From Patescibacteria group bacterium (GTDB taxonomy: Bacteria > Patescibacteriota > Minisyncoccia > Phycocordibacterales > Phycocordibacteraceae), in assembly GCA_018969385.1 (NCBI GenBank), contig JAGWYL010000002.1, forward strand, positions 289 to 64,288: 64,000 nucleotides of DNA. The letters are read 5' to 3'. Shown piece by piece: positions 3,396 through 57,730 of the stretch (within the stretch, counting starts at the first letter, position 1; every line of letters starts with the position of its first letter). A model generated the notes under the pieces. That model was not told where the DNA came from and did no database searches. It saw nothing but the letters and a program-made list of their open reading frames with translations. Both the position numbers and the translations under genes were made by a program.

Positions 3396-3627
3396 GGCGC
3401 TGCCGCATCTTCTGGTATGCGAGCGCGAGCCACTGGAAACCGACGATGCCTTGGCTCGCCGCCGCAAGCCACAGGTGCAGCGTAAAGAACGTGACCGCTC
3501 CCACGAGAAGCGCGAGGCCGGTCGTGACGCTCGACGAAAGCGGCGGCTTCTCCTTGGCGAGCAGCATCGGGATGAGCGTCACGCAGAACAGTATCTGCAC
3601 GGCGGTGAGTACGTAGTCCTGCCACAT
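3361..3627 (-). CDS. small hypothetical membrane protein (2 predicted TM helices)
   Basis: 88-aa ORF with two hydrophobic stretches in the convergent gap between GDH and RNase R; no homology recognised. Confidence 0.3.
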   Translation of the reverse strand: MWQDYVLTAVQILFCVTLIPMLLAKEKPPLSSSVTTGLALLVGAVTFFTLHLWLAAASQGIVGFQWLALAYQKMRQRPIRVPELPSRQ

Positions 3628-3668
3628 GCAAGGCAGTATACCCTGTGAACGACACGTTCAGCATAGGA

Positions 3669-3763
3669 CTCGTTTCAAAACCGGCTCGGGGTGCGCGGTT
3701 TGAAAGCGAACTCCCCTTAGGCTTTCAAACCGCGCACCCGCTCGCCGGAGATTTTGAAACGAG
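3669..3763. repeat. palindromic MITE/REP-like element, copy E1, immediately 3' of RNase R
   Basis: Outer inverted repeat ctcgtttcaaaa / ttttgaaacgag; inner stem ccggctcggggtgcgcggtttgaaagc / gctttcaaaccgcgcacccgctcgccgg; 13-nt loop. About 80% identical to copies at 25919, 33207 and 49377. Confidence 0.8.
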
Positions 3764-3765
3764 CT

Positions 3766-5724
3766 CTATTCAGAGGCCGGCACGAAATCCAGCTCCTTCT
3801 CCGGCACGCGCGCAGCGGCAAGCGTGACGCGGATAGGGTCGCCGATGCGGTACTGCTTCTTCGTGCGCCGGCCTACGAGCCGGTATCCCTTCTCATCGTA
3901 ATCGAAATAGTCGTCGCCGAGGTCGCGGATGCGTATCATGCCGTCCGCATGCGTGGTCTGCTCCTCCACATACATGCCGCGGTCGGAGACGCCGGAAATG
4001 ACCGCGTCGAACGCATCGCCCACGCGTCCCGCGAGGTACTCCACCTGCTTCATCTTGATGGAGTCGCGCTCCGCTTCCGTCGCGGCAACTTCGCGTTCGG
4101 AACAATGGATGGCGAGCTGCTCGAAGCCTTCTACCTCGCGGTCGCTCATCGGTTCGCGTCCCGCGTGGTGTTTCAGCAAGCGGTGCACCACGAGGTCCGG
4201 ATACCGGCGGATGGGCGAGGTGAAATGCGTGTAGTGCGTGAAGGCGAGTCCGTAGTGGCCGATATTCTTAGTGGAGTACACGGCTTTCGCCATGGAACGC
4301 AGGGTCGCGGTCTTGATGAGGTATTCTTCCGGCTTTCCTTTCACCTTCTCGAGAAGCTCGTTGATGGCCACGCCCTTCACGTTGCCCGCATGGGTCTCAA
4401 GGTCGTAGCCGAGCACGCGCAGGAACAGGGAGAGATTCTCGATGCGGTCCGCGTCCGGCGCGTCGTGGATGCGGTAGAGGTAGCCGTGGCGCAGGTTCTT
4501 CGAAAGGTCGGCCAGGTGCTCGGCGACGGACTCGTTCGCGAGCAGCATGAAGTCTTCGATGAGCAGGTTCGTGTCCTTGCGCTCCTTGAGATGCACGGCC
4601 ACCGGCTTCCCCGCGTCATCGAGCTCGATCTTCACCTCCGCCGTGTCGAATTCGATAGCGCCGTTCGCCTGCCGCTTCTTCCGGAGCAGCTTCGCGAGCG
4701 TCCGCAGCGTGGAGAGTTCCGCGTGCAGGTCGCCCGCGCCCGCCTCAAGCGTCTTCTGGGCGTCTTCGTACGTGTAGCGGCGGTCGGAATGTATGACCGT
4801 CTCGCCGAACCACCGGTCAAGCACCTTCGCGTTCGCGTCGAGCGTGAACACCGCGGAAACGGCGAGACGGTCTTCGCCCTGCCGGAGCGAACAGAGGTCG
4901 TTCGAGAGCACTTCCGGAAGCATCGGGATGGTGCGGTCCACCAGGTAGACGGAGGTCGCGCGCTGGTACGCTTCCTTGTCGAGTTCGCCTCCTTGCTTCA
5001 CGAAGAACGATACGTCCGCGATGTGTATGCCCACTTCGAACGTGCCGTCGCCCTTGTCCTTGAAGGAGAGCGCATCGTCGAAATCTTTCGCGTCGGCGGG
5101 GTCGATGGTACAGGTCGGCACGTCGCGGAAATCGCGGCGCTCGCCGCTCGCCACGGCGCGTGCGGCTTCCTCGGCAATCATCGCGTGGCCTTCATGCTGC
5201 AGGACTTCCGCCGCCTTCACGACGGCGGGCGGGAAGGCCGCTTCGAATCCCTGTCCGAGCGCGAGCGCGCGCATCTCCGTCTCGTGAACGCCCGCGGGAC
5301 CGATGACCTGCTCGACGACGCCCCACGGAAAATCCGAACCCTCGTCCCAGCCTTTCATGCGGACGAGCACCTTGTAGCCGAGCGGACAGGGAAGCTCGCC
5401 GCGTATGTCGAGCGGCACGTACATCTTCTTGAGGTCGGGAATGAGGAGCGGGCCCTTGTCGTCCATCAGGGTGCCGACGAACGTTTCGCGCGCGCGGGCG
5501 ACGACGCGGACGACCTTCGCGGCCGCGCGCTTCTCACCGGTGCGGGCGTCCGTCTCGAAACCGTCGGGAGCGACCGTCACGACGTCATGATTGAGCGCAT
5601 GATTGAGCGACTCCTTCGGGATGATGAAATCCTCCTTCTCTTCGTCGTATGTGAAAAAGCCCGTGCCTTTGCGGGTTATGGTGATGACGCCTTCGTAGGT
5701 CTGCGCCTGCGATTCCTTGTCCAC
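3766..5724 (-). CDS. rnr: ribonuclease R (RNB-family 3'-5' exoribonuclease)
   Basis: N-terminal cold-shock/OB region, RNB catalytic motif IDPADAKDFDDALS, C-terminal S1-like domain. Confidence 0.9.
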   Translation of the reverse strand: MDKESQAQTYEGVITITRKGTGFFTYDEEKEDFIIPKESLNHALNHDVVTVAPDGFETDARTGEKRAAAKVVRVVARARETFVGTLMDDKGPLLIPDLKKMYVPLDIRGELPCPLGYKVLVRMKGWDEGSDFPWGVVEQVIGPAGVHETEMRALALGQGFEAAFPPAVVKAAEVLQHEGHAMIAEEAARAVASGERRDFRDVPTCTIDPADAKDFDDALSFKDKGDGTFEVGIHIADVSFFVKQGGELDKEAYQRATSVYLVDRTIPMLPEVLSNDLCSLRQGEDRLAVSAVFTLDANAKVLDRWFGETVIHSDRRYTYEDAQKTLEAGAGDLHAELSTLRTLAKLLRKKRQANGAIEFDTAEVKIELDDAGKPVAVHLKERKDTNLLIEDFMLLANESVAEHLADLSKNLRHGYLYRIHDAPDADRIENLSLFLRVLGYDLETHAGNVKGVAINELLEKVKGKPEEYLIKTATLRSMAKAVYSTKNIGHYGLAFTHYTHFTSPIRRYPDLVVHRLLKHHAGREPMSDREVEGFEQLAIHCSEREVAATEAERDSIKMKQVEYLAGRVGDAFDAVISGVSDRGMYVEEQTTHADGMIRIRDLGDDYFDYDEKGYRLVGRRTKKQYRIGDPIRVTLAAARVPEKELDFVPASE

Positions 5725-5911: not shown

Positions 5912-6313
5912 ATGTTGATGATCCGATTTCAGCGCATAGGCCGCAAGAACGACCCCGCGTTCCGCATGGTCGTCCTTGAGAAAGCCAGGAGCCCCAAGGC
6001 GGGCCGCCCGCTCGCGCAGCTGGGCTCCTATAATCCGAAGACCAAGGCTTTTTCGGCTGACACTGACGCCATAAAGGACTGGATGAAGAAAGGCGCGCAA
6101 CTCTCTCCTTCGCTCCACAACCTCTTGCTCGCGAAAGGTCTCATCGAAGGCAAGAAGATAAACGTTCTTCCGAAGAAGACTCCTCCCAAGAAGGAAGAGG
6201 AGGCTTCCGCCGCGCCGAAGGCCGAAGAGACCGTCGCCGCTGCGGCGCCTGAAGCTCCCGCGCAGTCGCCCGTCGAAGAGGAGGCCGCGACACCCGCAGA
6301 AGCAGCGGCGTAG
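5912..6313 (+). CDS. rpsP: 30S ribosomal protein S16 with Ala/Glu/Pro-rich C-terminal extension
   Basis: MLMIRFQRIGRKNDPAFRMVVLEKARSPKAGRPLAQLGSYNP matches the S16 family; low-complexity tail. Confidence 0.9.
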   Translation: MLMIRFQRIGRKNDPAFRMVVLEKARSPKAGRPLAQLGSYNPKTKAFSADTDAIKDWMKKGAQLSPSLHNLLLAKGLIEGKKINVLPKKTPPKKEEEASAAPKAEETVAAAAPEAPAQSPVEEEAATPAEAAA

Positions 6314-6402
6314 CGTTCGCACGCCGCCACGCTGGTATACTTACCGCGGCGGGGAGGACGGCTTACTGCTAACCGCTTCTTGTCTCCTGCCTACTATTTA
6401 TT

Positions 6403-6732
6403 ATGGAACCGGACCAGCAATTTCTCGATTACGTCGTGAAGGCCATCGTCGACCATCCGGACGATGTCGTCATCGAGCGCACCGTGGACAACATGGGCGT
6501 TCTCCTTACGCTCACCGTCCACCCGGACGATATGGGCAAGGTCATCGGCAAGCAGGGAAAGATAGCGCAGGAAGCGCTTCGTCCGCTCTTGCGCATCGTG
6601 GGCATGAAGCATAATGCGCGCGTAAACCTGAAGATAAACGAGCCCGTCGGCGGCAAGCGCCTTGAAGGAGGCATGACCACGGGCGGGGTGCTCGACGAGA
6701 TGGATAAGACCATCGAAGACCTGAAGGGATAG
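6403..6732 (+). CDS. KH-domain RNA-binding protein (YlqC/KhpA-like)
   Basis: KH core VIGKQGKIAQEALRPLL; conserved position between rpsP and trmD. Confidence 0.8.
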   Translation: MEPDQQFLDYVVKAIVDHPDDVVIERTVDNMGVLLTLTVHPDDMGKVIGKQGKIAQEALRPLLRIVGMKHNARVNLKINEPVGGKRLEGGMTTGGVLDEMDKTIEDLKG

Positions 6733-6806
6733 CTGACAGCGTACAGCTGACAGGCCATACGTCGAACATGAAACAAATCAAAGCTGTACGCTGCAAGCTG
6801 TAAGCT
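6732..6806. repeat. inverted-repeat pair of the short CAGCGTACAGCTG / CAGCTGTAAGCT motif family
   Basis: cagcgtacagct (6737-6748) and its exact reverse complement agctgtacgctg (6782-6793) flank a 33-nt spacer. Related copies at 38303-38333 and 41106-41138. Confidence 0.5.
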
Positions 6807-6812
6807 TCTCTC

Positions 6813-7502
6813 ATGCCGCGATTTCATCTCATAACCCTTTTTCCTGAAGCGTGCGACGCGTACCTCTCCGCGTCCATCATCGGCCGCGCGCGGAAGGAAA
6901 AGAAGATTTCCGTAGACTATACGAACCCGCGCGATTTCGTAACGAACAGATGGGGCAAGGTGGACGAACGTCCGTACGGCGGCGGTCCCGGCATGGTGAT
7001 GCAAGCGCTGCCGATAGTGAAGGCGACCGAGAAGGCGCTCGGAAAGCGCGCGGGGAAGAAAGCCATCGTCTGGTTCCAGCCGGAAGCGAAGCAGTTCACG
7101 AACAAGGATGCGGACGCGCTCGGGAAGTACGACGAAGTCGCATTCGTCTGCGGACGCTATGAAGGCATAGACGAACGCGCGAAAAAGATCCTGAAGGCTT
7201 TCAAAACTAGGACATCCGATGTCCTAGTTTTGAAAGCCTACGCGGTCGGCGAAGCGGTCTATACCGGCGGGGAAGTGCCGGCGATGGCGATGATAGACGC
7301 CATCACCAGGCGGCTTCCGGGCGTGCTCGGCAAGGACGCGTCCGTCGAGGAGCGCCGCGTGTCCTCGCACGAGGTCTACACGCGGCCGGAGACCATCGAA
7401 TACAGGAAGAAGAGATACAAGGTCCCGCCGGTGCTGCGCACCGGCGACCACGCGAAGATGGAGGCGTGGAAACGTAAGAAGAACGGCGCGAAAAAGAGTT
7501 AG
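6813..7502 (+). CDS. trmD: tRNA (guanine37-N1)-methyltransferase TrmD carrying a 15-codon palindromic in-frame insertion
   Basis: TrmD motifs GRYEGIDER and TGGEVPAMAMIDAITRRLPGVLG. The segment KAFKTRTSDVLVLKA between them is encoded by the 45-bp palindrome. Confidence 0.9.
   Translation: MPRFHLITLFPEACDAYLSASIIGRARKEKKISVDYTNPRDFVTNRWGKVDERPYGGGPGMVMQALPIVKATEKALGKRAGKKAIVWFQPEAKQFTNKDADALGKYDEVAFVCGRYEGIDERAKKILKAFKTRTSDVLVLKAYAVGEAVYTGGEVPAMAMIDAITRRLPGVLGKDASVEERRVSSHEVYTRPETIEYRKKRYKVPPVLRTGDHAKMEAWKRKKNGAKKS
7196..7240. repeat. 45-bp perfect palindrome (21-bp arms, 3-nt centre) inside trmD, in frame
   Basis: aggctttcaaaactaggacat-ccg-atgtcctagttttgaaagcct. Core TAGGACATnnnATGTCCTA is shared with 14730 and 55283; outer GCTTTCAAAAC arms resemble the large element family. 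Confidence 0.85.
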
Positions 7503-7623
7503 ACGGCCGAGGTTCTCCGACCCGCCACGCGCTCGATCTGTCCCCGCGAAAGAGGGTCCGATTCTAGTCTTTCGCATGAACAGCTCTTCGCGCGTGGCGG
7601 GTCTTGAAACGGATTCTAGTATT

Positions 7624-7660
7624 CCAAAAAAGAGAAGGCCGCCTTCATGGGGCGGCCTTT
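7624..7660 (-). terminator. intrinsic terminator for the minus-strand histidine phosphatase gene
   Basis: Plus strand reads aaaaaaga-aaggccgcc-ttcatgg-ggcggcctt; on the minus strand this is a hairpin followed by TCTCTTTTTT. Confidence 0.6.
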
Positions 7661-7681
7661 CGCACTGATAGGACTGGAAGA

Positions 7682-8338
7682 TCAATCGAAGTCGTCGAGG
7701 CCGATGACCTCGAGATTCCCGACGTCGGATTCCTCGCCATCACCGATTGCGAATCGGAACCCGTCGGTCTCGCCGAGAATCGTATACTCGATCGTATGGC
7801 CTTCAATCGAACCCGGGAATCCTCCGGCGAAGAGTACCATCGCTGGAATCAGGCTGCCGTGGCCGACAACGAGGATTTCGGTGCTCTCGTCGGGAAGCTT
7901 TGCGAGCTCCCTGAAGAGCGCATCCGCCGCATACAACCCGTAGCAGTTGAGCGCGGCTTTGAAAGCCGGATCTTTACAGTAGGTCGCAAGCGACGCGACG
8001 CCGTATTTCACGTACGCGTCGTCGAGCGTCTTGCCGAGCGTGGTAGACGGGTCGACGATGCCGAACGCGTCGACGCGGATGATATGCGTCTCGCTGATGC
8101 CGCTCACATATGATGCCGTCTGAACGGCGCGTTTGGCAGGCGACGCGAAGGCCGCGTGATACTTCGGCGACAAAAGCGCCTCCCGGCGGTCGGTCGATTG
8201 CCTCGCGCCGAGGAAAGACATGCTGCGAGCGTTATCCATCTCGTATGCGCTCATCCTTTCGGAGAGCGCCTTTTTCAGTTCTTCCGTCAGCGTGACGGCA
8301 TTTGCATGCCGCAGCGCGGTAATGCGACGTGTTGTCAT
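7682..8338 (-). CDS. histidine phosphatase family protein (phosphoglycerate mutase-like / SixA-like)
   Basis: N-terminal RHANA variant of the RHG motif and C-terminal VVGHGSLI. Start moved to the internal ATG (MTTRRITALRH) at 8338. Confidence 0.75.
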   Translation of the reverse strand: MTTRRITALRHANAVTLTEELKKALSERMSAYEMDNARSMSFLGARQSTDRREALLSPKYHAAFASPAKRAVQTASYVSGISETHIIRVDAFGIVDPSTTLGKTLDDAYVKYGVASLATYCKDPAFKAALNCYGLYAADALFRELAKLPDESTEILVVGHGSLIPAMVLFAGGFPGSIEGHTIEYTILGETDGFRFAIGDGEESDVGNLEVIGLDDFD

Positions 8339-8471
8339 CGGAACACTCCATATGTCAGAGGGCGCGCCGCGCCCGTTCGTCCCTACGGCCCCAGCGGCTT
8401 TCGGTCTGATTTCAACATAGCACGAAAAATTGGTATTGTCAAAATAGGGCGGAAATGCTAGCGTTTGCCGC

Positions 8472-10538
8472 ATGGAACTCATCCGTTCGTTCGCACGGAT
8501 TGGGAAGGATGATGCCGCTCTCGCCGGCGGGAAGGGCGCGTCCTTGGGAGAGATGACACGGGTCGGCATACCGGTGCCGCCCGGATTTGTCATCCTCGCG
8601 GGCGCGTTCGAGCGGTTCATCGAGGAGACGGATGTCAATGTGGAAATAGACGCGCTCCTTAGCACCGTGGATACGCGAGACATGCACACGGTGGAAGAAG
8701 CGTCCGGCAAGATTCAGTCGCTCATCCAGCAAGCGACGATGCCCGAAGACATCCGCACGGCAATCATGCAGAGCTTCACGGAGCTCGGCGCGGAATTCGT
8801 CGCGGTACGCTCAAGCGCGACCGCAGAGGACAGCGCGTCGGACGCGTGGGCCGGCCAGCTCGACACGTACCTCAACACCACGGAAGCGGATGTGGTCGCG
8901 AACGTGCAGCGGTGCTGGGCGTCCCTCTTCACGCCGCGCGCCATCTTCTATCGTTTCGAGAAGGGACTCGACGCGACGAAGATATCGGTGGCGGTCGTCG
9001 TGCAGAAGATGGTGCAGTCGGACGCAGCCGGCATCGCATTCTCCGTGCATCCGGTTACGGAGGATTACAACCAGCTCATCATCGAAGGCGGCTGGGGACT
9101 CGGCGAAGCAGTCGTTTCCGGACAGATAACGCCGGACTCGTACGTGGTCACGAAAGAACCGCGCGTCATCATCGACAAGAACATCTCCGAACAAGGTCGC
9201 GGACTGTTCCGCAAGGAAGGGGGCGGAAACGAATGGAAAGAGCTCGGCGCGAAAGGGAACGAGCAGGTGCTCTCTGACGAACAGATTCTCGCGCTTGCCG
9301 ATATCGTCATCGGCATCGAAGGGCACTACGGTTTCCCGGTGGATGTCGAATGGGCGATGGAGGACGGTACGTTCTACATAACGCAGAGCCGGCCCATCAC
9401 CACGCTCACCCCGCCGGTCGCGAAGGAGCCGCCCGATGGTGAAGAAGAACGCGCGAAAAGTGATTCTGAATCATCAACGGAGCGCGGAAACACAGCCGCA
9501 TACGTGAGAGAGATTAAAGCGCTCGATTGGTACCAGGACTGGTCCGGCCTCTATTCGCAGATAGAAGCATCGCTCGACGCCGACGCGTACTTCGGTCATT
9601 TTGAGAACGCGTGCGGCATGCAGTTCTCTCACGCGCTCGTGACTCTCATCGGGGAGACGGCTATCGGGTGGCTTCCGACGAGCGAAGGGGAAGCGATAGG
9701 TGCGCACCTCGTGCGCAAGCTTCAAGAGCCCGCGTTCTTGAAAGAGTGGACGGAGAATTTCCGCAACTATTTCGATCAGGTCAGCGCATTCCTGAAACTG
9801 CCTCGAGAAGAGCTCCTCGCCCGTTACCGGGAATATGCAGACTTATATCCGCAACTGGCTCCCTATACCATCGGCACGAAGCTTGCGTTCAATGCGCTCC
9901 CGCTCGGAAGCGAGCCTATAGCGGCGGAACTGGAGAAGGTCAGGAAATATACGGAACGAATCTATAAGGATTCGGCACTCATGACGAGCGAGCTTTGTCG
10001 CACCATAGCGGAGCGTAGCGGGTATCCGACGGGTGCGGTCCGTACGCTGACGGTCGACGAGATTTCACGATACGGGACGAACGGCACGCTTCCTTCGCAA
10101 TCTACGCTCGAAGCGCGCGCACTAGCCGGTGCCGTGTATCTCATGCCGGGCAAGAGCGTTCTTCTCTCTCGCGACGAAACTGAAGACATCCTCGCGTCAT
10201 TTACGTCCGGCGTGATGAAGGACGGCGCGCTTGTCGGGACGTCCGCGCATCCGGGTATCGTGCAGGGCACGTGCCGCATCGTCTTCGATTTTCGGGACGC
10301 GGTCATGCACGACGGCGACATCCTGGTCACGCCCATGACCAATCCGTACTTCGTCCCGCTCATGAAGAAAGCGGGCGCCATCGTCACGGACGGTGGCGGG
10401 ATGCTCTCGCACGCGGCAATCGTCGCGCGGGAACTCGGCAAGCCCTGCATTATCGGCACGAAGGTCGCGACGCAGGTACTCAAAGACGGCGACATGGTGG
10501 AAGTGGATGCGGAGAAGGGGGTCGTACGGAAGGTATGA
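8472..10538 (+). CDS. PEP-utilizing enzyme: PpsA/rifampin-phosphotransferase-like ATP-grasp + central domain + swivel phospho-His domain, no PEP/pyruvate-binding TIM barrel
   Basis: N-terminal GGKGASLGEMTRVGIPVPPGF (PPDK_N ATP-grasp); C-terminal GGMLSHAAIVARELGKPCIIGT (mobile His domain). 688 aa, so no room for a C-terminal PEP-binding domain. Confidence 0.85.
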   Translation: MELIRSFARIGKDDAALAGGKGASLGEMTRVGIPVPPGFVILAGAFERFIEETDVNVEIDALLSTVDTRDMHTVEEASGKIQSLIQQATMPEDIRTAIMQSFTELGAEFVAVRSSATAEDSASDAWAGQLDTYLNTTEADVVANVQRCWASLFTPRAIFYRFEKGLDATKISVAVVVQKMVQSDAAGIAFSVHPVTEDYNQLIIEGGWGLGEAVVSGQITPDSYVVTKEPRVIIDKNISEQGRGLFRKEGGGNEWKELGAKGNEQVLSDEQILALADIVIGIEGHYGFPVDVEWAMEDGTFYITQSRPITTLTPPVAKEPPDGEEERAKSDSESSTERGNTAAYVREIKALDWYQDWSGLYSQIEASLDADAYFGHFENACGMQFSHALVTLIGETAIGWLPTSEGEAIGAHLVRKLQEPAFLKEWTENFRNYFDQVSAFLKLPREELLARYREYADLYPQLAPYTIGTKLAFNALPLGSEPIAAELEKVRKYTERIYKDSALMTSELCRTIAERSGYPTGAVRTLTVDEISRYGTNGTLPSQSTLEARALAGAVYLMPGKSVLLSRDETEDILASFTSGVMKDGALVGTSAHPGIVQGTCRIVFDFRDAVMHDGDILVTPMTNPYFVPLMKKAGAIVTDGGGMLSHAAIVARELGKPCIIGTKVATQVLKDGDMVEVDAEKGVVRKV

Positions 10539-14729: not shown

Positions 14730-14764
14730 CATAACGCTAGGACATCGGATGTCCTAGCGTTATG
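14730..14764. repeat. 35-bp palindrome with TAGGACAT-N3-ATGTCCTA core
   Basis: cataacgctaggacat-cgg-atgtcctagcgttatg; same 19-bp core as in trmD (7196) and at 55283. Confidence 0.7.
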
Positions 14765-25918: not shown

Positions 25919-26005
25919 CCGTTTCAAAAACCGGCTCGGGGTGCACGGTTCGGAAGCGAACTCTCTTCAGGCTTCCGAACCGTGCACCCCGAGCCGGACG
26001 TTTTG
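25919..26005. repeat. palindromic MITE/REP-like element, copy E2, immediately 3' of rpoD and 5' of the hydrogenase-like cluster
   Basis: cgtttcaaaaaccggctcggggtgcacggttcggaagc - gaactctcttcag - gcttccgaaccgtgcaccccgagccgg - acgttttg; perfect 28-bp stem. Confidence 0.8.
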
Positions 26006-33206: not shown

Positions 33207-33298
33207 GATTCCGGAACTCGCCGCGGGATGCGCGGTTCGGAAGCCTGAAGAGAGTTCGCTTCCGAACCGCGCATCCCTGGCCGAAGGCTTGAAATACG
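33207..33298. repeat. palindromic MITE/REP-like element, copy E3, immediately 3' of the hydrogenase-like cluster, inverted relative to E2
   Basis: Stem gggatgcgcggttcggaagc / gcttccgaaccgcgcatccc; loop ctgaagagagttc is the reverse complement of the E2 loop. Confidence 0.8.
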
Positions 33299-40599: not shown

Positions 40600-41337
40600 T
40601 TAAAAATATGACACGACCAGGCGCTTGCGGCCATACGGGTCGGTGCGCAACTCGCTTCGTTTCGCTCCGCTCCGACGGGCGAGCGTAAGCGCCTGATCCG
40701 CGTTCGATTCATCGCACTCGAGCCAAAGCTCGCCGCCTTCATTCATGTGCGTCGCAGCGTCCGCGCATATCCGACGGATGAGGTCGAGCCCATCCGTGCC
40801 GGAGAAGAGCGCCCCGTTCGGCTCGTAGTCCGTAACGTTCGCGTCGAGGGTGCGGCCCGCGGGGACGTATGGCGGGTTCGCGGCGATGATGTCGAACCGC
40901 TCGTCCTTAAACGGCGCGAAGAGGTCGCCGATGCCGATGGATGCGCGCGAAGCGTCGAGTCCGTTCTCGCGGATGTTTTTCCGGATGGTGTCCTCGTGCG
41001 CAGGGTCGAGTTCGCCGAAACGGACTTTCGCATGGGGAAGACGCGCGAGCGCGGCGCAGCCGATGGCGCCCGAACCCGCGCACAGGTCGAGAAAAGAAAG
41101 AGGAGTGTCTGTACGCTGTACGCTGTCAGCTGTAAGCTCTTCTGCCCACCATTCCGTTTCGGGGCGGGGGATAAGCGGCCGTGAGTCGAGGTGGATGCGA
41201 AGTCCGAGGAACGGCTGCCACCCGATGACATAGGCAAGCGGCTCGCCGCGGGCGAGCCGCTTGCGATCGGCGTCGAATGCATCGCATTCGACGCCGCCGT
41301 ATTTCTCGTTCACCAGCCACCGCTCGTCCTTCTCCAT
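40600..41337 (-). CDS. prmC: release factor glutamine N5-methyltransferase (HemK/PrmC)
   Basis: LDLCAGSGAIG SAM-binding motif and catalytic NPPY (IIAANPPYV). Confidence 0.85.
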   Translation of the reverse strand: MEKDERWLVNEKYGGVECDAFDADRKRLARGEPLAYVIGWQPFLGLRIHLDSRPLIPRPETEWWAEELTADSVQRTDTPLSFLDLCAGSGAIGCAALARLPHAKVRFGELDPAHEDTIRKNIRENGLDASRASIGIGDLFAPFKDERFDIIAANPPYVPAGRTLDANVTDYEPNGALFSGTDGLDLIRRICADAATHMNEGGELWLECDESNADQALTLARRSGAKRSELRTDPYGRKRLVVSYF

Positions 41338-47987: not shown

Positions 47988-49796
47988 TCACTCGCTCGCC
48001 GTGAGCATGTACCGCTTGATGTCTTCGAAGGTGCCGCCGACTTTCTTGCCGGGGTTGAGGATGTTCTCGGGATCGAACGCCTTCTTCACTTCTTCGAACA
48101 GCGCGACCATCTCCGCGCCGAAGAGCATGGGGAGGTACGGCGTGCGGATGATGCCGTCATTATGCTCGCCGGTCGTCGTGCCGCCGTACTTGATGACGAG
48201 CTCGTAGACTTTCGGCGCGAGTTCGAGGATGGTCTCGCGGGAAATGGGCTTCGAGAGGTCCATGAGCGGGATGATGTGGAAGTTCCCGTTGCCGATGTGG
48301 CCGGCGATGGTGTAGATGAAGCGGTCCTGATACTGCGCAAGGAGCGCGGATAGTTCCGGCAGGAATTTCGGGTATGACGCAGGCGGCACGACGAAGTCGT
48401 CGATGAAGGGGGAGGCGTAGTAGCCGTGGAGCGACTTGCGCAGGAGCGCGAAGCTCTCGCGCCGGACTATCCAATATTTCTCGCTCTCGGCCTCATTTTT
48501 CTCTATCTTCGTCTCGAGATGGAACTCGGCGAGCGCGTCCTGCGCCGCCTTCGCCTTCGCGTCCGCTTCTTCGATGGTGTTCTCCGCGAACTCGGCCATG
48601 AGGATGAGCTTCGGCACGCCGCCTACGAGCACCGTTTCCACTTCCGGCAAGAACTCGATGCCGAGGTGCACGGCCTTCGCGAGCCCCATCTGCTTGAGGA
48701 GGTCGAAGAGGAACCGCGTCGCGAACGTGAAGGTCTTGTCGTCGTAGCTTTCGAACGATTCGGGATTGAGCGGCAGCACCTTCGCGACGATGTCCGGCAA
48801 CGGCGCGAGGTCATGGAGGAAGATGACGAGCATGGCGCGGTGCGGCTTGTCCTTCACGAGCCCGAGCCGCGCGCGCGTCCACAGCGCGAGCGTGCCCTGG
48901 CTGCCGCAGATGAGCTTCGCGAGGTTCACGCCGCCGTCCGGCGTGCGCACGTTCCAGAGCGCGTAGCCCGCGGAGTTCTTCGAAACCTCCGGCTTCTTTT
49001 CGGCGATAAGGTCGGCGTTCTTCGTGATGACCTCATCGACCGTGCGATAGATGGAACCTTCGAGCGTCTCGAGTTTCTTCTTCTCGTCGAGCTCGGCGCT
49101 CGTGAGCGCTTTGAATGTCGCCTTCGAGCCGTCCGAAAGCACGACCTCCATCTCCTCTATATAGTCTTCCGTCTTGCCGTACTCGAGCGTGCGCTCGCCG
49201 CCGGAATTATTCGCGACGATGCCGCCCATGGCGCAGAGCTCGCGGCTTGCGGGGTAGGAGGGGAGTATGAGGTCCTGCTTGAGGGTCTCCTTCTCGAAGT
49301 CGCGGTAGAAGACGCCGGGTTCCGTGATGGCGTATCCGGCGACATGCGCGCTTTGCAGTCCGTTCGCGTTCAAAGCGGAACTCGTTTCAATACCGGCTCG
49401 CGGTGCATGGTTCGGAAGAAGCCCATTCAAGTCTTCCGAACCATGCACTCCCTCGCCGGAAGTTTTGAAATGAGTTCCGTCGGCAGCGCCGACCTCGCCC
49501 ATGTGATTCATATATCTGGTGAATGAGATGACGACGCCGTCCGTGAGCGGGCCGCCGGACATGTCCGTGCCGGCCGAGCGCGCGGCGAGCGCTACCTGCG
49601 CGCCGCCCTCCCGGGCGGCGCGCACCACCCTTACCGCCGCCGCCACGTCATCCGCATCCTTCGGAAATACCACCAGCTTCGGCATCCGCATGAAAAGGGA
49701 CGTGTCCCTGCTCGCCTTCGCGAGGTCCTCCGGCGCGTCCGACACGTCGCCTTTCACTACGTCTGTCAATCTCGATTTCAGTTCTTGTACATCCAT
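47988..49796 (-). CDS. FAD-linked oxidase (GlcD / D-lactate dehydrogenase family) carrying an in-frame 34-codon palindromic-element insertion
   Basis: FAD-binding PCMH region (FPKDADDVAAAVRVV...GTDMSGG) and C-terminal FAD-oxidase domain (HIGNGNFHI). Continuous 602-aa ORF spans element E4. Confidence 0.85.
   Translation of the reverse strand: MDVQELKSRLTDVVKGDVSDAPEDLAKASRDTSLFMRMPKLVVFPKDADDVAAAVRVVRAAREGGAQVALAARSAGTDMSGGPLTDGVVISFTRYMNHMGEVGAADGTHFKTSGEGVHGSEDLNGLLPNHAPRAGIETSSALNANGLQSAHVAGYAITEPGVFYRDFEKETLKQDLILPSYPASRELCAMGGIVANNSGGERTLEYGKTEDYIEEMEVVLSDGSKATFKALTSAELDEKKKLETLEGSIYRTVDEVITKNADLIAEKKPEVSKNSAGYALWNVRTPDGGVNLAKLICGSQGTLALWTRARLGLVKDKPHRAMLVIFLHDLAPLPDIVAKVLPLNPESFESYDDKTFTFATRFLFDLLKQMGLAKAVHLGIEFLPEVETVLVGGVPKLILMAEFAENTIEEADAKAKAAQDALAEFHLETKIEKNEAESEKYWIVRRESFALLRKSLHGYYASPFIDDFVVPPASYPKFLPELSALLAQYQDRFIYTIAGHIGNGNFHIIPLMDLSKPISRETILELAPKVYELVIKYGGTTTGEHNDGIIRTPYLPMLFGAEMVALFEEVKKAFDPENILNPGKKVGGTFEDIKRYMLTASE
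49377..49478. repeat. palindromic MITE/REP-like element, copy E4, inserted in frame within the FAD-linked oxidase CDS
   Basis: gaactcgtttcaataccggctcgcggtgcatggttcggaaga...tcttccgaaccatgcactccctcgccggaagttttgaaatgagttc. 102 nt; the minus strand reads GTHFKTSGEGVHGSEDLNGLLPNHAPRAGIETSS with no stop. Confidence 0.8.
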
Positions 49797-55137: not shown

Positions 55138-55282
55138 TACCCGTGTCGGATACGCGCGCTCTAGGAAAAACCGTATATACGCGGCCTTTTGGACTGCGGA
55201 ACGAGAAAATAAAAAGCCGCCCTATTATGAAGCCGGGGCGGCGCGGCTGTTGGAACGGACTTCCCAAGTACGACACACTTAT

Positions 55283-55307
55283 ACGTAGGACATAGTATGT
55301 CCTACGT
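55283..55307. repeat. 25-bp palindrome with TAGGACAT-N3-ATGTCCTA core, 24 nt 3' of the P-type ATPase stop
   Basis: acgtaggacat-agt-atgtcctacgt; shares its core with 7196 and 14730. Confidence 0.6.
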
Positions 55308-55330
55308 AACATGCTGGGTGTGCCGCCGCG

Positions 55331-57730
55331 CTACGCGGAAGCGTGCGCGAGCGGCGGCGCGTTCGGCTTCACGCCCGGTTTCGGGCTCATCATCTTGAAT
55401 ATCTCGGCTATCTGCATCCAGAAGAAGGACCAGACCCAGACGAACGCGATAAGCCACAAGGGAAGCGGCGCGGTGAAGATGCCGAAGAAGGCCCACGCGG
55501 TGGCGAGCAGCTGCGTGAAGGTGACGGCGCTCACGACCGGAAGGCTCGGGAGGAAGCGGAACCAGCGGGAGGACGTGTGCGCGACGTACACGAGCAGGTG
55601 TCCCGAAACGACGAGCTTCAGGAAGAAGAGCGTCTGGATTTCCGCCCACGGAAGGCGCAGGTATCCGTACGCGAACATGAGCATGAAGATGCTGTTCGCG
55701 ATTCCCGAGAGTCCGTAGAGTATGGAAAGCTTCGCGCGGCGGCGGCCGTCGATGCTCGAAGGCGCATGCGGAACGTGCACGCGGTCGAACGCGATGGAGA
55801 TGATAGGGACGTCGTTCAGGAAGGCGAGCAGGAGCACCTGGATAGGCGTGAGCGGATAGTTCCCGATGGAGACGCCGATGATGGCGATGGTGAGGATGAG
55901 CCGGAAGCTTTCCGACATGCGGTAGACGGAGTAGTGGTAGAGGCGGACGAAGACCTTGCGCGCTTCCGTGATGGCGGTGGCGATGACCGAGAGCCCGTTC
56001 GAGAGGAGGACGATGTCCGCGGTCTCCCGCAAGGCGTCGACCGAACCCGCGACCGCGATGCCGACGTCCGCGTCCGCGACGGACGGCACGTCATTCACGC
56101 CGTCGCCGGTGACGGCGACGCGCGATACCTTCTTCGCCGCTTCGACCGCGGCATACTTATCTTTCGGCAGCACTTCCGCGAAGGCGGCCGTGTGCGGGAG
56201 CGCGGCCGCAAGCTTCGCCGGGTCGTCGAAGATGTCGCGCGTGTACACGTCGCCGACGAGCCCGAGCTCGTCGGACACCTCGTGCGCGATGGCGTCATCG
56301 TCGCCCGTGAGCATCGTCACCTTGATGCCTTCCTCGCGCATCGTCTCTACGGTCGCCTTCGCGTCTTCCCGCAGCGTGTCCGCGAGGAACAATAGGCCGA
56401 CGGGCTCGAGACCCTCCTCCTTTTCCGAACCTTTGCGGACGGATACGGCAAGCGTGCGGTCGCCGCGCTTCGCCGCGCCGAGGACGGCGTCCGTGAACGC
56501 CGTGCGCTCCCCGGCGGAGAATTCGGAGCGGCTCTCGAGCACGGACGGGGAACCGAGCACGACCATCCAGGACTCGCCATCCCTCGTCACCGTCGCGGTC
56601 GCGCGCTTGCGTTCCGAGTCGCCCGGGATGAACGCTGACTGCGGATACATGGGCGCGCCCGCATCCTTCGCCGCATCGCGCACGGCCTCCTCAAGCGGAT
56701 TATTGTCCGCGGGGTCCGTGGCGGACGCGCCGAACGAGAGGAGGTCGGCCTTCGCGTACGCGCCGAAGAGCTGCACCTCCGCGACCCGTATGTGATTTTC
56801 CGTGAGCGTGCCGGTCTTGTCGGAAAGGAGCAGGTTCACGTTCGCGAGGTCCTCAAGCGAAGAGAGACGCCGCACCACGGCTCCGCTTCTCGCGAGGACC
56901 AGCACGCCGGCGCTGATGATGAGGCTCATGACGGTGGGAAGCGCCACCGGGATGCCCGCGATGAGGAGCGATATGTCGAGCGTGGCGATGTCCGCATATG
57001 AGTTCGAGTGGAGCAGGAGCGCGCCCGTGAGGACGACCATCGCGCCGATGGCGAAGAAGGACAGGTAGCGGGAGATGGCGAGGATGTCATGCTCGAGCGC
57101 GGAACGCTTGCGCGCCATCTCCACGGTCTTCACCGTGGTGCCGAAGTACGTCCGCGCGCCCGTTGCGGTGACGAGCGCGTTCGCGGACCCCGTCACCACG
57201 AACGAGCCGGAGTAGAGGATGTCGTCCTTCGCCTTCTCTTTCGGGAGCGATTCTCCCGTGAGCATGGACTCGTTAATCGAGAGGTTCGAGCCCGAAAGCA
57301 CCTTCGCGTCCGCGGGGACGATGGAGCCGACGCGAAGCGCGATGAGGTCGTCGGGAACGAGTTCCGCCGCCGGTACGGTCTTCCACGCGCCGCCGCGCAG
57401 CACGTTCGCGGAAACGGCAAGGTGCTCTTCGAGCTTCGCGACCGCCTGGTCGGCCTTATGCTCGTGCCAGAGCTGCACGCCGTAGTTAGCGAGCAGGAGG
57501 AAGAGGATTATCCAGCCGTCCGGAATCTTGCCGCTCGCGAACGAGAGCGCCGCCGCCGCGACGAGCATGAGCGGGATAGGGGAGAAGAACCACTTGATGA
57601 ACTTCTCGATGCCGCTCTTCTTCTTCGCAGCGATGGCATTTTCTCCCACGCGCGCGCGGACGCGCGCGGCTTCCTCGTCGGTGAGACCGGCGAGTACGCG
57701 AGGCGCGTCCGCTAGAGGGGCATCGCTCAT
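55331..57730 (-). CDS. cation-transporting P-type ATPase (P2/P3-like; no heavy-metal CPC motif)
   Basis: Phosphorylation site LLSDKTGTLTEN, hinge TGDGVNDVPSVADADVGIAV, ~10 TM helices. Confidence 0.9.
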   Translation of the reverse strand: MSDAPLADAPRVLAGLTDEEAARVRARVGENAIAAKKKSGIEKFIKWFFSPIPLMLVAAAALSFASGKIPDGWIILFLLLANYGVQLWHEHKADQAVAKLEEHLAVSANVLRGGAWKTVPAAELVPDDLIALRVGSIVPADAKVLSGSNLSINESMLTGESLPKEKAKDDILYSGSFVVTGSANALVTATGARTYFGTTVKTVEMARKRSALEHDILAISRYLSFFAIGAMVVLTGALLLHSNSYADIATLDISLLIAGIPVALPTVMSLIISAGVLVLARSGAVVRRLSSLEDLANVNLLLSDKTGTLTENHIRVAEVQLFGAYAKADLLSFGASATDPADNNPLEEAVRDAAKDAGAPMYPQSAFIPGDSERKRATATVTRDGESWMVVLGSPSVLESRSEFSAGERTAFTDAVLGAAKRGDRTLAVSVRKGSEKEEGLEPVGLLFLADTLREDAKATVETMREEGIKVTMLTGDDDAIAHEVSDELGLVGDVYTRDIFDDPAKLAAALPHTAAFAEVLPKDKYAAVEAAKKVSRVAVTGDGVNDVPSVADADVGIAVAGSVDALRETADIVLLSNGLSVIATAITEARKVFVRLYHYSVYRMSESFRLILTIAIIGVSIGNYPLTPIQVLLLAFLNDVPIISIAFDRVHVPHAPSSIDGRRRAKLSILYGLSGIANSIFMLMFAYGYLRLPWAEIQTLFFLKLVVSGHLLVYVAHTSSRWFRFLPSLPVVSAVTFTQLLATAWAFFGIFTAPLPLWLIAFVWVWSFFWMQIAEIFKMMSPKPGVKPNAPPLAHASA

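Follow-up and report, generated by a model that had tools for sequence, protein, structure and literature searches.

A Palindrome in the Reading Frame of trmD in a Patescibacteria Group Bacterium Is Probably a REP-Type Hairpin of a Y1 Transposase Family

Introduction

How does the gene of an essential tRNA methyltransferase come to carry a long palindrome in its reading frame? This question is raised by contig JAGWYL010000002.1 of a Patescibacteria group bacterium (assembly GCA_018969385.1), of which a stretch of 64,000 nucleotides, referred to below at its whole length as the window, was analyzed. In this stretch the trmD gene, encoding the tRNA methyltransferase TrmD, contains a 45-nt palindrome that the first-pass annotation had described as a mini-element inserted cleanly as exactly 15 codons. 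We propose that the palindrome is probably a hairpin of the repetitive extragenic palindromic (REP) type, that it belongs to a family of IS200-like Y1 (HUH) transposases, known as REP-associated tyrosine transposases (RAYTs), which is widespread in Patescibacteria, and that it is tolerated in a loop of the protein.

The Palindrome and Its Position in trmD

The open reading frame (ORF) of trmD occupies positions 6813–7502 on the plus strand. It is intact, with 229 codons and a stop, and matches the Pfam family tRNA_m1G_MT (PF01746) at 124 bits, which bears out the claim that the palindrome lies in frame inside trmD. The gene is the last one of an rpsP-KH-trmD cluster; the ribosomal protein S16 (rpsP) and KH-domain genes are located upstream.

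The palindrome itself (AGGCTTTCAAAACTAGGACATCCGATGTCCTAGTTTTGAAAGCCT) is located at 7195–7239. It is composed of two arms of 22 nt on either side of a single central C, which is the only base at which the self-complementarity is broken, and it is read in frame as (K)AFKTRTSDVLVLKA. Previously it had been placed at 7196–7240 and given 21-bp arms with a ccg centre. The palindrome is thus real, but its coordinates were one base off, its arms are one nucleotide longer and the central base alone is unpaired. No match to the 45-nt palindrome was obtained in 100 dinucleotide-preserving shuffles. With a GC content of 42% it is a compositional outlier in the window (63.5%), and its RNA is predicted to fold into a hairpin with a free energy of -32.3 kcal/mol (z -11.4). 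No known RNA family was matched when the region 6300–8000 was scanned against Rfam.

Fold-back chimeras can produce perfect palindromes, and an assembly or library artefact of this kind would give a false one. However, a second assembly (GCA_028865695.1, contig JAGWJQ010000020.1) is 100% identical to the window over 4,690 bp, which makes an assembly artefact very unlikely. Furthermore, the same insert is present in two other assemblies from ENA, the core of the palindrome occurs in at least 115 public loci, and the ORF remains in frame. An artefact can therefore be practically dismissed.

Copies of the Repeat in the Window and in Other Genomes

The repeat unit had been taken to be the whole 45 nt. 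The actual unit is the inner 31 nt, CAAAAC-TAGGACATCCGATGTCCTA-GTTTTG, located at 7202–7232, in accordance with a family consensus of 29–31 nt; the same 31-mer flanks Y1-transposase genes elsewhere (see below). Scans of the window and of other genomes define within it a conserved 19-nt core, TAGGACATC-C-GATGTCCTA, organized as 9 + 1 + 9 nt at 7208–7226.

As had been reported, the core (in the form TAGGACAT-N3-ATGTCCTA) recurs at two intergenic sites of the window, 14738–14756 and 55286–55304, both between long ORFs. The second copy is a 35-nt palindrome, CATAACGC-core-GCGTTATG, with a CGG centre (14730–14764). The third is a variant 27-nt palindrome with an AGT centre and TACG/CGTA flanks (55282–55308), located directly 3' of a 799-aa ORF (55331–57730, minus strand). 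All three copies are singletons, and each of them carries its own palindromic flanks. A search of the window for degenerate copies (GGACATCSGATGTCC, with up to three mismatches) revealed nothing above chance beyond these three. The window thus contains three copies of a short palindrome, two of them intergenic, which agrees with the definition of REPs as short (20–40 nt), multicopy and mostly extragenic palindromes. Direct target-site duplications, as expected for a miniature inverted-repeat transposable element, were looked for at the three window copies and were absent; the flanks of the trmD copy are inverted, not direct (AGGCTTT/AAAGCCT).

To describe the distribution of the family, one genome per species was scanned with TAGGACATNNNATGTCCTA, and at least 115 loci were found. 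Among the matches listed, nearly all copies whose centre is CCG or CGG belong to metagenome-assembled genomes (MAGs) of Patescibacteria, the dominating groups being Kaiser-, Adler-, Nomura-, Zambryski- and Saccharibacteria and Paceibacterota. Several copies per MAG were found in other genomes. A scan of viral contigs for the core gave no matches.

Comparison of 75 copies revealed that: (i) the family consensus is (C)AAA-NN-TAGGACATCSGATGTCCTA-NN-TTT(G), 29–31 nt in length, the conserved stem beginning as NN-TAGGACATC; (ii) the NN pairs covary, and copies from one genome tend to share them; and (iii) the flanks are A-rich/T-rich, with flank positions 1–5 paired in 95, 87, 85, 71, and 65% of the copies and positions further out in about 30%. 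In many copies a degenerate GGACATCSGATGTCC is located nearby with its centre base flipped, an arrangement that resembles inverted doublets (e.g., loci L005, L007, L010, L015, and L040).

In the literature searched, we found no text containing the 15-mer core and no paper linking RAYT or REP to Patescibacteria. This REP/RAYT family, its occurrence in this phylum and trmD as a host gene appear undescribed in that literature.

It should be mentioned that the same 8-nt half-sites, with a GGG/CCC centre, were found in a set of loci from Streptomyces, Nonomuraea, and Actinophytocola (L027, L029, L031, L032, L036, L045, L055, L066, L080, L081, L087, and L117), often with gaca/tgtc flanks and with conserved flanking sequence. 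The set looks like an unrelated conserved protein-binding site and not like the Patescibacteria repeat.

Y1 Transposase Genes Associated With the Repeat

In loci L020, L058, L063, L082, L096, and L118, pairs of cores located 688–707 bp apart bracket an ORF of 217–222 aa. The transposase ORFs contain HYHLL (the HUH motif) and LWQGKY and match the Pfam family Y1_Tnp (PF01797) at 36.8, 29.8, and 33.0 bits (cutoff 23). According to tblastn, a homolog of this transposase adjoins the core in 12 loci. A metagenome scan for CAAAAC-core-GTTTTG revealed the exact 31-mer, with C or G in its centre, on both sides of a Y1-transposase gene in L127, whose ORF occupies positions 807–1445, and on one side of such a gene in L123. 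Transposase genes with copies on both sides are therefore found in L127 as well as in the loci listed above, and those with one adjacent copy in L123, L061, L090, and L030. The flanking copies are inverted in five of the seven pairs inspected.

Net Gain in Comparison With TrmD Orthologs

In total, 246 TrmD relatives were pooled from two homolog searches; the closest are proteins of Patescibacteria/Paceibacterota, 72–83% identical to the window TrmD. The segment from GIDER to TGGE comprises 21 residues in 241 of the 246 relatives and 28 in the window protein. Judging from these alignments, the net gain is thus seven codons (21 nt), not 15, and the outer arms of the palindrome overlie codons that already existed in trmD.

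Close orthologs read KKILKT[LM]GT[LV]K[ET][FY]AVGE, and the window TrmD has KKILKAFKTRTSDVLVLKAYAVGE at the same place. In the codon alignment, the nearest ortholog (L001) has AAG ACA CTT GGG ACG CTG AAG GAA TTT, compared with AAG GCT TTC AAA ACT AGG ACA TCC GAT GTC CTA GTT TTG AAA GCC TAC in the window. On the right side, the outer arm AAAGCCT (7233–7239, plus strand) covers codons K-A-Y in agreement with the ortholog pattern K-x-[FY], and the right arm still encodes an ancestral-type L-K-x-Y (cf. ancestral [LV]-K-x-[FY]). On the left side, the outer arm AGGCTTT (7195–7201, plus strand), found in this genome only, covers codons K-A-F, where orthologs have K-T-[LM]; the left arm as a whole encodes K-A-F-K-T in place of K-T-[LM]-G-T.

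These data bear on the initial view, according to which a discrete 45-nt (15-codon) mini-element was dropped cleanly into trmD and its deletion restores the ancestral protein with normal spacing. The 45 nt are indeed perfectly palindromic and a multiple of three. However, the gain relative to orthologs is seven codons, the right-arm codons match the ancestral pattern, and the outer 7 bp of each arm are missing from a second filled allele (see below) and from all other copies of the family. Deletion of the 45 nt would leave 13 residues, too short for a clade with 21. A clean insertion of 45 nt is therefore very improbable.

Place of the Insert in the TrmD Protein

The window protein has the domain (tRNA_m1G_MT), the S-adenosylmethionine (AdoMet)-loop motifs and the SPOUT fold of TrmD. 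Solved TrmD chains from PDB match it at E values of about 1e-40, the motifs GRYEGIDER and TGGEVPAM are retained, and all clade-invariant residues are kept in two alignments. An alignment to TrmD of H. influenzae places the additional residues after GRYEGIDER(L) and before WSIGDYVLTGGE, between two of the AdoMet-site loops. Within the SPOUT domain, this region belongs to the knotted C-terminal part (PMC5372744).

A model of the window TrmD was built with AlphaFold (AF2) from an alignment of 54 sequences, with a mean predicted local distance difference test (pLDDT) score of 77. The model contains a helix after GRYEGIDER (residues 121–128), a loop (129–137) and a strand before TGGE (138–143), and the insert would form the loop and the start of the strand; pLDDT is about 63 over residues 131–140. 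The top Foldseek matches of the model are all TrmD, and the predicted fold remains that of TrmD. An essential tRNA methyltransferase would thus tolerate an addition of seven residues even in its knotted catalytic domain, beside the AdoMet loops.

Two further TrmD proteins that are not sisters, P0003 and P0006, carry unrelated GC-rich 21-nt palindromes (9 + 3 + 9 nt) in the same loop. These are GCGGCCGGC-GGA-GCCGGCCGC and GCGGCTGGC-AAA-GCCAGCCGC, located at 3406–3426 in L121 and at 2111–2131 in L122, and they add seven and six residues, respectively. A search through the window and all fetched loci recovered the GC-rich palindrome from these two trmD genes only. With unrelated palindromes in the same place, the TrmD loop would be either a hot spot or a permissive site.

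The gene convergent with trmD (7682–8710, minus strand) encodes a protein of the histidine phosphatase family, according to a weak Pfam match (23 bits). The rplS gene, commonly located downstream of trmD in bacteria, is absent at the position 3' of trmD in the window.

In-Frame Copies in Other Genes

The core contains TAG in one frame only, two of the three frames being open on each strand, and this is why the trmD ORF stays open. The open frames read RTSDVL or GHPMS. Other in-frame copies were revealed in Pfam-verified genes of RecG, TsaD, ArgRS, LeuRS, PheT, a class-V aminotransferase, Fmt, Tgt, and an MTS-type methyltransferase. One more, in a GT2-like ORF assigned by eye, reads VKTRTSDVLVLD, in the same frame as in trmD. 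The same site is occupied in RecG of three genomes and in PheT of two, and in LeuRS of two genomes the copies are located at different positions of one variable loop. In the annotation of housekeeping proteins of the Candidate Phyla Radiation (CPR), the family would account both for puzzling palindromes of low GC content and for the peptides "RTSDVL" and "GHPMS".

Repeat doublets were also observed in TsaD (L012) and RecG (L005, L040, and L111). In L006, at about position 1574 (minus strand), a 22-residue in-frame doublet, ISDIGCPTSDVGHPMSY, is present in an ORF that by eye resembles DNA polymerase III alpha (DnaE-like); the ortholog in L084 is devoid of this doublet.

A PrmC-like ORF of the window was considered as a carrier of a decayed core copy, with the peptide VQRTDTPLS to be compared with VRTSDVLT in L085. 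This candidate was rejected: its DNA is a different short repeat, GCTGACAGCGTACAGC. The latter has three matches in the window against 0.01 expected, namely two copies in inverted orientation in the KH–trmD intergenic region (6731–6799) and one at 41115–41130 (minus strand). The last one lies in the PrmC-like ORF, at the loop where PrmC of L085 carries the REP core.

Second Filled Allele of trmD

A second insert-bearing TrmD, P0036, reading RALKTRTSDVLVLKEY, was found on contigs L119 and L120 from two ENA assemblies. The window gene shares with it an identical run of 36 nt (7201–7236, plus strand) at the same codon, and the rest of the gene has 74% DNA identity. The two proteins are 76.7% identical, which ranks 99 of 119. 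Each filled allele has closer relatives without the insert, P0002 (83%) for the window TrmD and P0132, P0133, and P0091 (84–87%) for P0036; the filled alleles are therefore not sisters. Two readings follow: two separate entries of the element at one codon, or the transfer of a short patch from lineage to lineage. When the insert and its surroundings (63 aa) were used as a protein query, nothing but short TrmD fragments free of the insert was recovered, and a metagenome scan with a trmD-anchored pattern (core + N12 + TWYKCNRTNGGNGARGC) gave no matches.

Proposed Origin of the Insert

The explanation that we favor, a REP-type hairpin tolerated in a loop, can be put as a sequence of events. By analogy with IS200/IS605 and with TnpA-REP of E. 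coli, a RAYT acting in trans would have placed the hairpin as single-stranded DNA. Selection would retain only those copies that are in frame, free of stops and located in permissive surface loops of essential genes. The insert would be translated (KTRTSDVLV) and roughly neutral. The seven extra bp per arm would have arisen later by hairpin-templated strand switching (quasi-palindrome correction); such a switch would turn one flank into the reverse complement of its partner and replace T-[LM] by A-F.

Several observations weigh against this explanation. No RAYT gene was found in the 64-kb window by tblastn, so its copies may be relics. The flanked transposases match the NCBIfam model NF047646 (REP_Tyr_transpos) at 40.2 and 40.8 bits, below its cutoff of 80; on these scores they are relatives of REP_Tyr_transpos and not equivalogs. 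The GTAG/CGTC tag of classical REPs is missing, and GTAG appears only where the variable flank base is G (55285). The flank dinucleotides differ among the three window copies (AC, GC, and CG), and several other genomes show uniform flanks across their own copies.

Finally, a plain insertion of 31 nt does not fit the data, as the frame is shifted once the 31 nt are excised. In each of the two TrmD alleles, about 10 ancestral nt have given way to the 31-mer, with a net gain of 21 nt (for example, GCG CCG GTC of L128 corresponds to AAA AC...GT TTG of L119). A net gain of 21 nt with replacement is not predicted by cut-and-paste activity of a Y1 transposase. It could be read in three ways: (i) a gain of 21 nt, after which the flanks were converted to the family consensus; (ii) a gain of 31 nt with a loss of 10 nt; or (iii) microhomology-guided copying from another copy. 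Pairs of filled and empty TrmD alleles thus raise a question of mechanism, namely why a 31-nt element adds a net 21 nt.

The two filled alleles could also go back to a single origin followed by short-patch homologous recombination between Patescibacteria lineages, rather than to two insertions. Both carry the 36 nt at the same codon, and in both about 10 ancestral nt were replaced in the same way. In addition, trmD is mosaic in metagenome ERZ27236955, where L119 (1725–2462) and L128 (1501–2247), from the same sample, are 97.4% identical over the first 272 nt and about 80% afterwards; this mosaicism points to homologous recombination between related Patescibacteria populations. However, there is no rise in identity between the window and L119 away from the shared 36 nt, and the adjoining codons differ at seven of 15 positions (AAG GCT TTC/GCC TAC vs. 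CGC GCC CTC/GAG TAT). Thus, we regard a single origin with subsequent recombination as rather unlikely. Transfer of a large patch between the two filled alleles was rejected, as there is no elevated identity beyond the 36 nt.

Outer Arms of the Palindrome

Only this genome has the outermost 7 bp of each arm (AGGCTTT and AAAGCCT). In the P0036 allele the palindrome spans no more than 33 nt, and the hairpin has a free energy of -20.6 kcal/mol. The chance of seven further complementary pairs is about 6e-5. In the family, nine of 75 copies have at least nine flank bases in perfect pairing, whereas about 0.3 such copies would be expected if each position paired at its own rate. The sequences of the long arms are site-specific, and long arms are also present at intergenic copies. 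Why the arms are long, perfect and site-specific in some copies is a further question of mechanism.

The right arm is of the ancestral type, and the changes (T to A, L/M to F) are clustered in the left one. This is most simply read as one strand switch templated by the hairpin, in which one flank was copied as the complement of the other. We offer this reading tentatively, as a possibility that falls somewhat short of being probable. Quasi-palindrome (template-switch) mutagenesis has been studied in E. coli and phage T4. Its ability to perfect an imperfect inverted repeat in one event fits the clustered changes in the outer 7 bp; in contrast to those systems, the process is only inferred here, and no intermediate allele was found.

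The outer arms had also been said to resemble the stems of a large element family, and this resemblance found no support. Five matches with at most one mismatch were found in place of the 0.59 expected, two of them being the palindrome itself and two more the two arms of one other hairpin. A link through a shared string of about 11 nt was rejected as being within chance for the window. The larger hairpins are GC-rich, e.g., CCGGCTCGGGGTGCACGGTTCGGAAGC-N13-reverse complement, and unrelated to the REP core. They are located at 25931–25997, 33218–33284, 49403–49448, 3658–3774, 2097–2150, and 7515–7620; one is a nested hairpin beside the RNase R gene and another is located directly downstream of trmD.

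Tolerance or Co-option

It had been suggested that the insert is either neutral or co-opted. Tolerance in frame agrees with our data, but co-option found no support in them. If co-opted, the hairpin would have been kept and lengthened to 22 bp for a role in trmD mRNA or DNA, candidate roles being a site of RNase III cleavage or decay that tunes the TrmD level and a translational pause within the knotted SPOUT domain. A role of this kind would account for the very stable stem (-32.3 compared with -20.6 kcal/mol in the other allele), the lack of synonymous drift over 36 nt between two diverged alleles, and the extension of the arms far beyond chance. However, 241 of 246 relatives do without the insert, the same element is found in many unrelated genes and in intergenic DNA, where some copies have long arms too, and Rfam gave no match. 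Moreover, trmD is the last gene of its cluster, so there is no downstream gene to regulate. Co-option is thus highly unlikely, and a tolerated REP-type hairpin remains the preferred explanation.

A broader hypothesis is that a pan-phylum REP/RAYT system recurrently remodels protein loops, its hairpins landing again and again in the same permissive loops of essential genes. They would replace a few host bases instead of being simply inserted and then grow outward by hairpin-templated copying, with adjacent codons being rewritten. It would draw on repeated landings, twice in TrmD, in three genomes in RecG, in two in PheT, and twice in one loop of LeuRS; the loops of TrmD and PrmC also host unrelated short repeats in other genomes. 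This hypothesis is doubtful at present; if true, it would mean a mutational mechanism specific to perfect-palindrome REPs.

Comparison With Known Systems

REPs and REPINs together with their RAYTs (REPtrons) have been described in Pseudomonas, E. coli, and Stenotrophomonas (PMC3116915, PMC3337134, PMC5581495, PMC3479197). The Patescibacteria repeats are similar to them in being hairpins of about 30 nt, present in many copies per genome and mostly intergenic near the 3' ends of genes; many copies outside the window also resemble inverted doublets in their arrangement. As in a REPtron, a single Y1/HUH transposase gene is located between two copies in related genomes. In contrast to classical REPs, the Patescibacteria palindrome is perfect but for one central base, so that no bulge marks its orientation, and it has no GTAG or CGTC tag. 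The transposase is 217–222 aa in length and scores below the NCBIfam cutoff for RAYTs. The family also differs from REPs and REPINs in that an identical 19-nt core is found across class-level lineages of Patescibacteria and that a subset of copies has long site-specific arms.

Insertion of such repeats into genes is not without precedent. Di Nocera et al. (2013; PMC3733652) described GTAG/CGTC REPs that lie, singly or as dimers, within the reading frame of housekeeping genes, above all those of replication, repair and tRNA-related functions, and read them as tolerated loop decorations; different REPs can share an approximate site in orthologous genes. The hosts found here are of a similar kind: RecG, the DnaE-like ORF (assigned by eye), aminoacyl-tRNA synthetases, TrmD, Tgt, and TsaD. 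Our repeats belong to another sequence family and to another phylum, and TrmD was not seen among the genes named in the passages of that study that were consulted. A further difference from the GTAG/CGTC REPs is that, owing to the replacement of flanking host bases, the net gain falls short of the length of the element.

Another comparison is provided by the Rickettsia palindromic elements (RPEs), which are in-frame palindromic repeats in many unrelated, often essential genes of a reduced genome and encode extra peptide segments compatible with the protein fold (PMC10969869). RPEs are about 100–150 bp in length, encode 30–50 residues and occur in Rickettsia, whereas the element described here has 31 nt, adds seven residues and occurs in Patescibacteria; it cannot be classed with the RPEs. 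It is also associated with a Y1 transposase family, whereas we know of no dedicated transposase for RPEs.

The first-pass annotation had called an in-frame palindrome in an essential gene unusual. The element does appear to be tolerated in frame, but the term is overstated, given the documented in-frame RPEs and the REPs described by Di Nocera et al. (PMC10969869, PMC3733652). The kind of event, i.e., an in-frame hairpin repeat in a housekeeping gene, is already known from other bacteria, and what the palindrome in trmD probably adds to these systems is a REP/RAYT family of the Patescibacteria (CPR).

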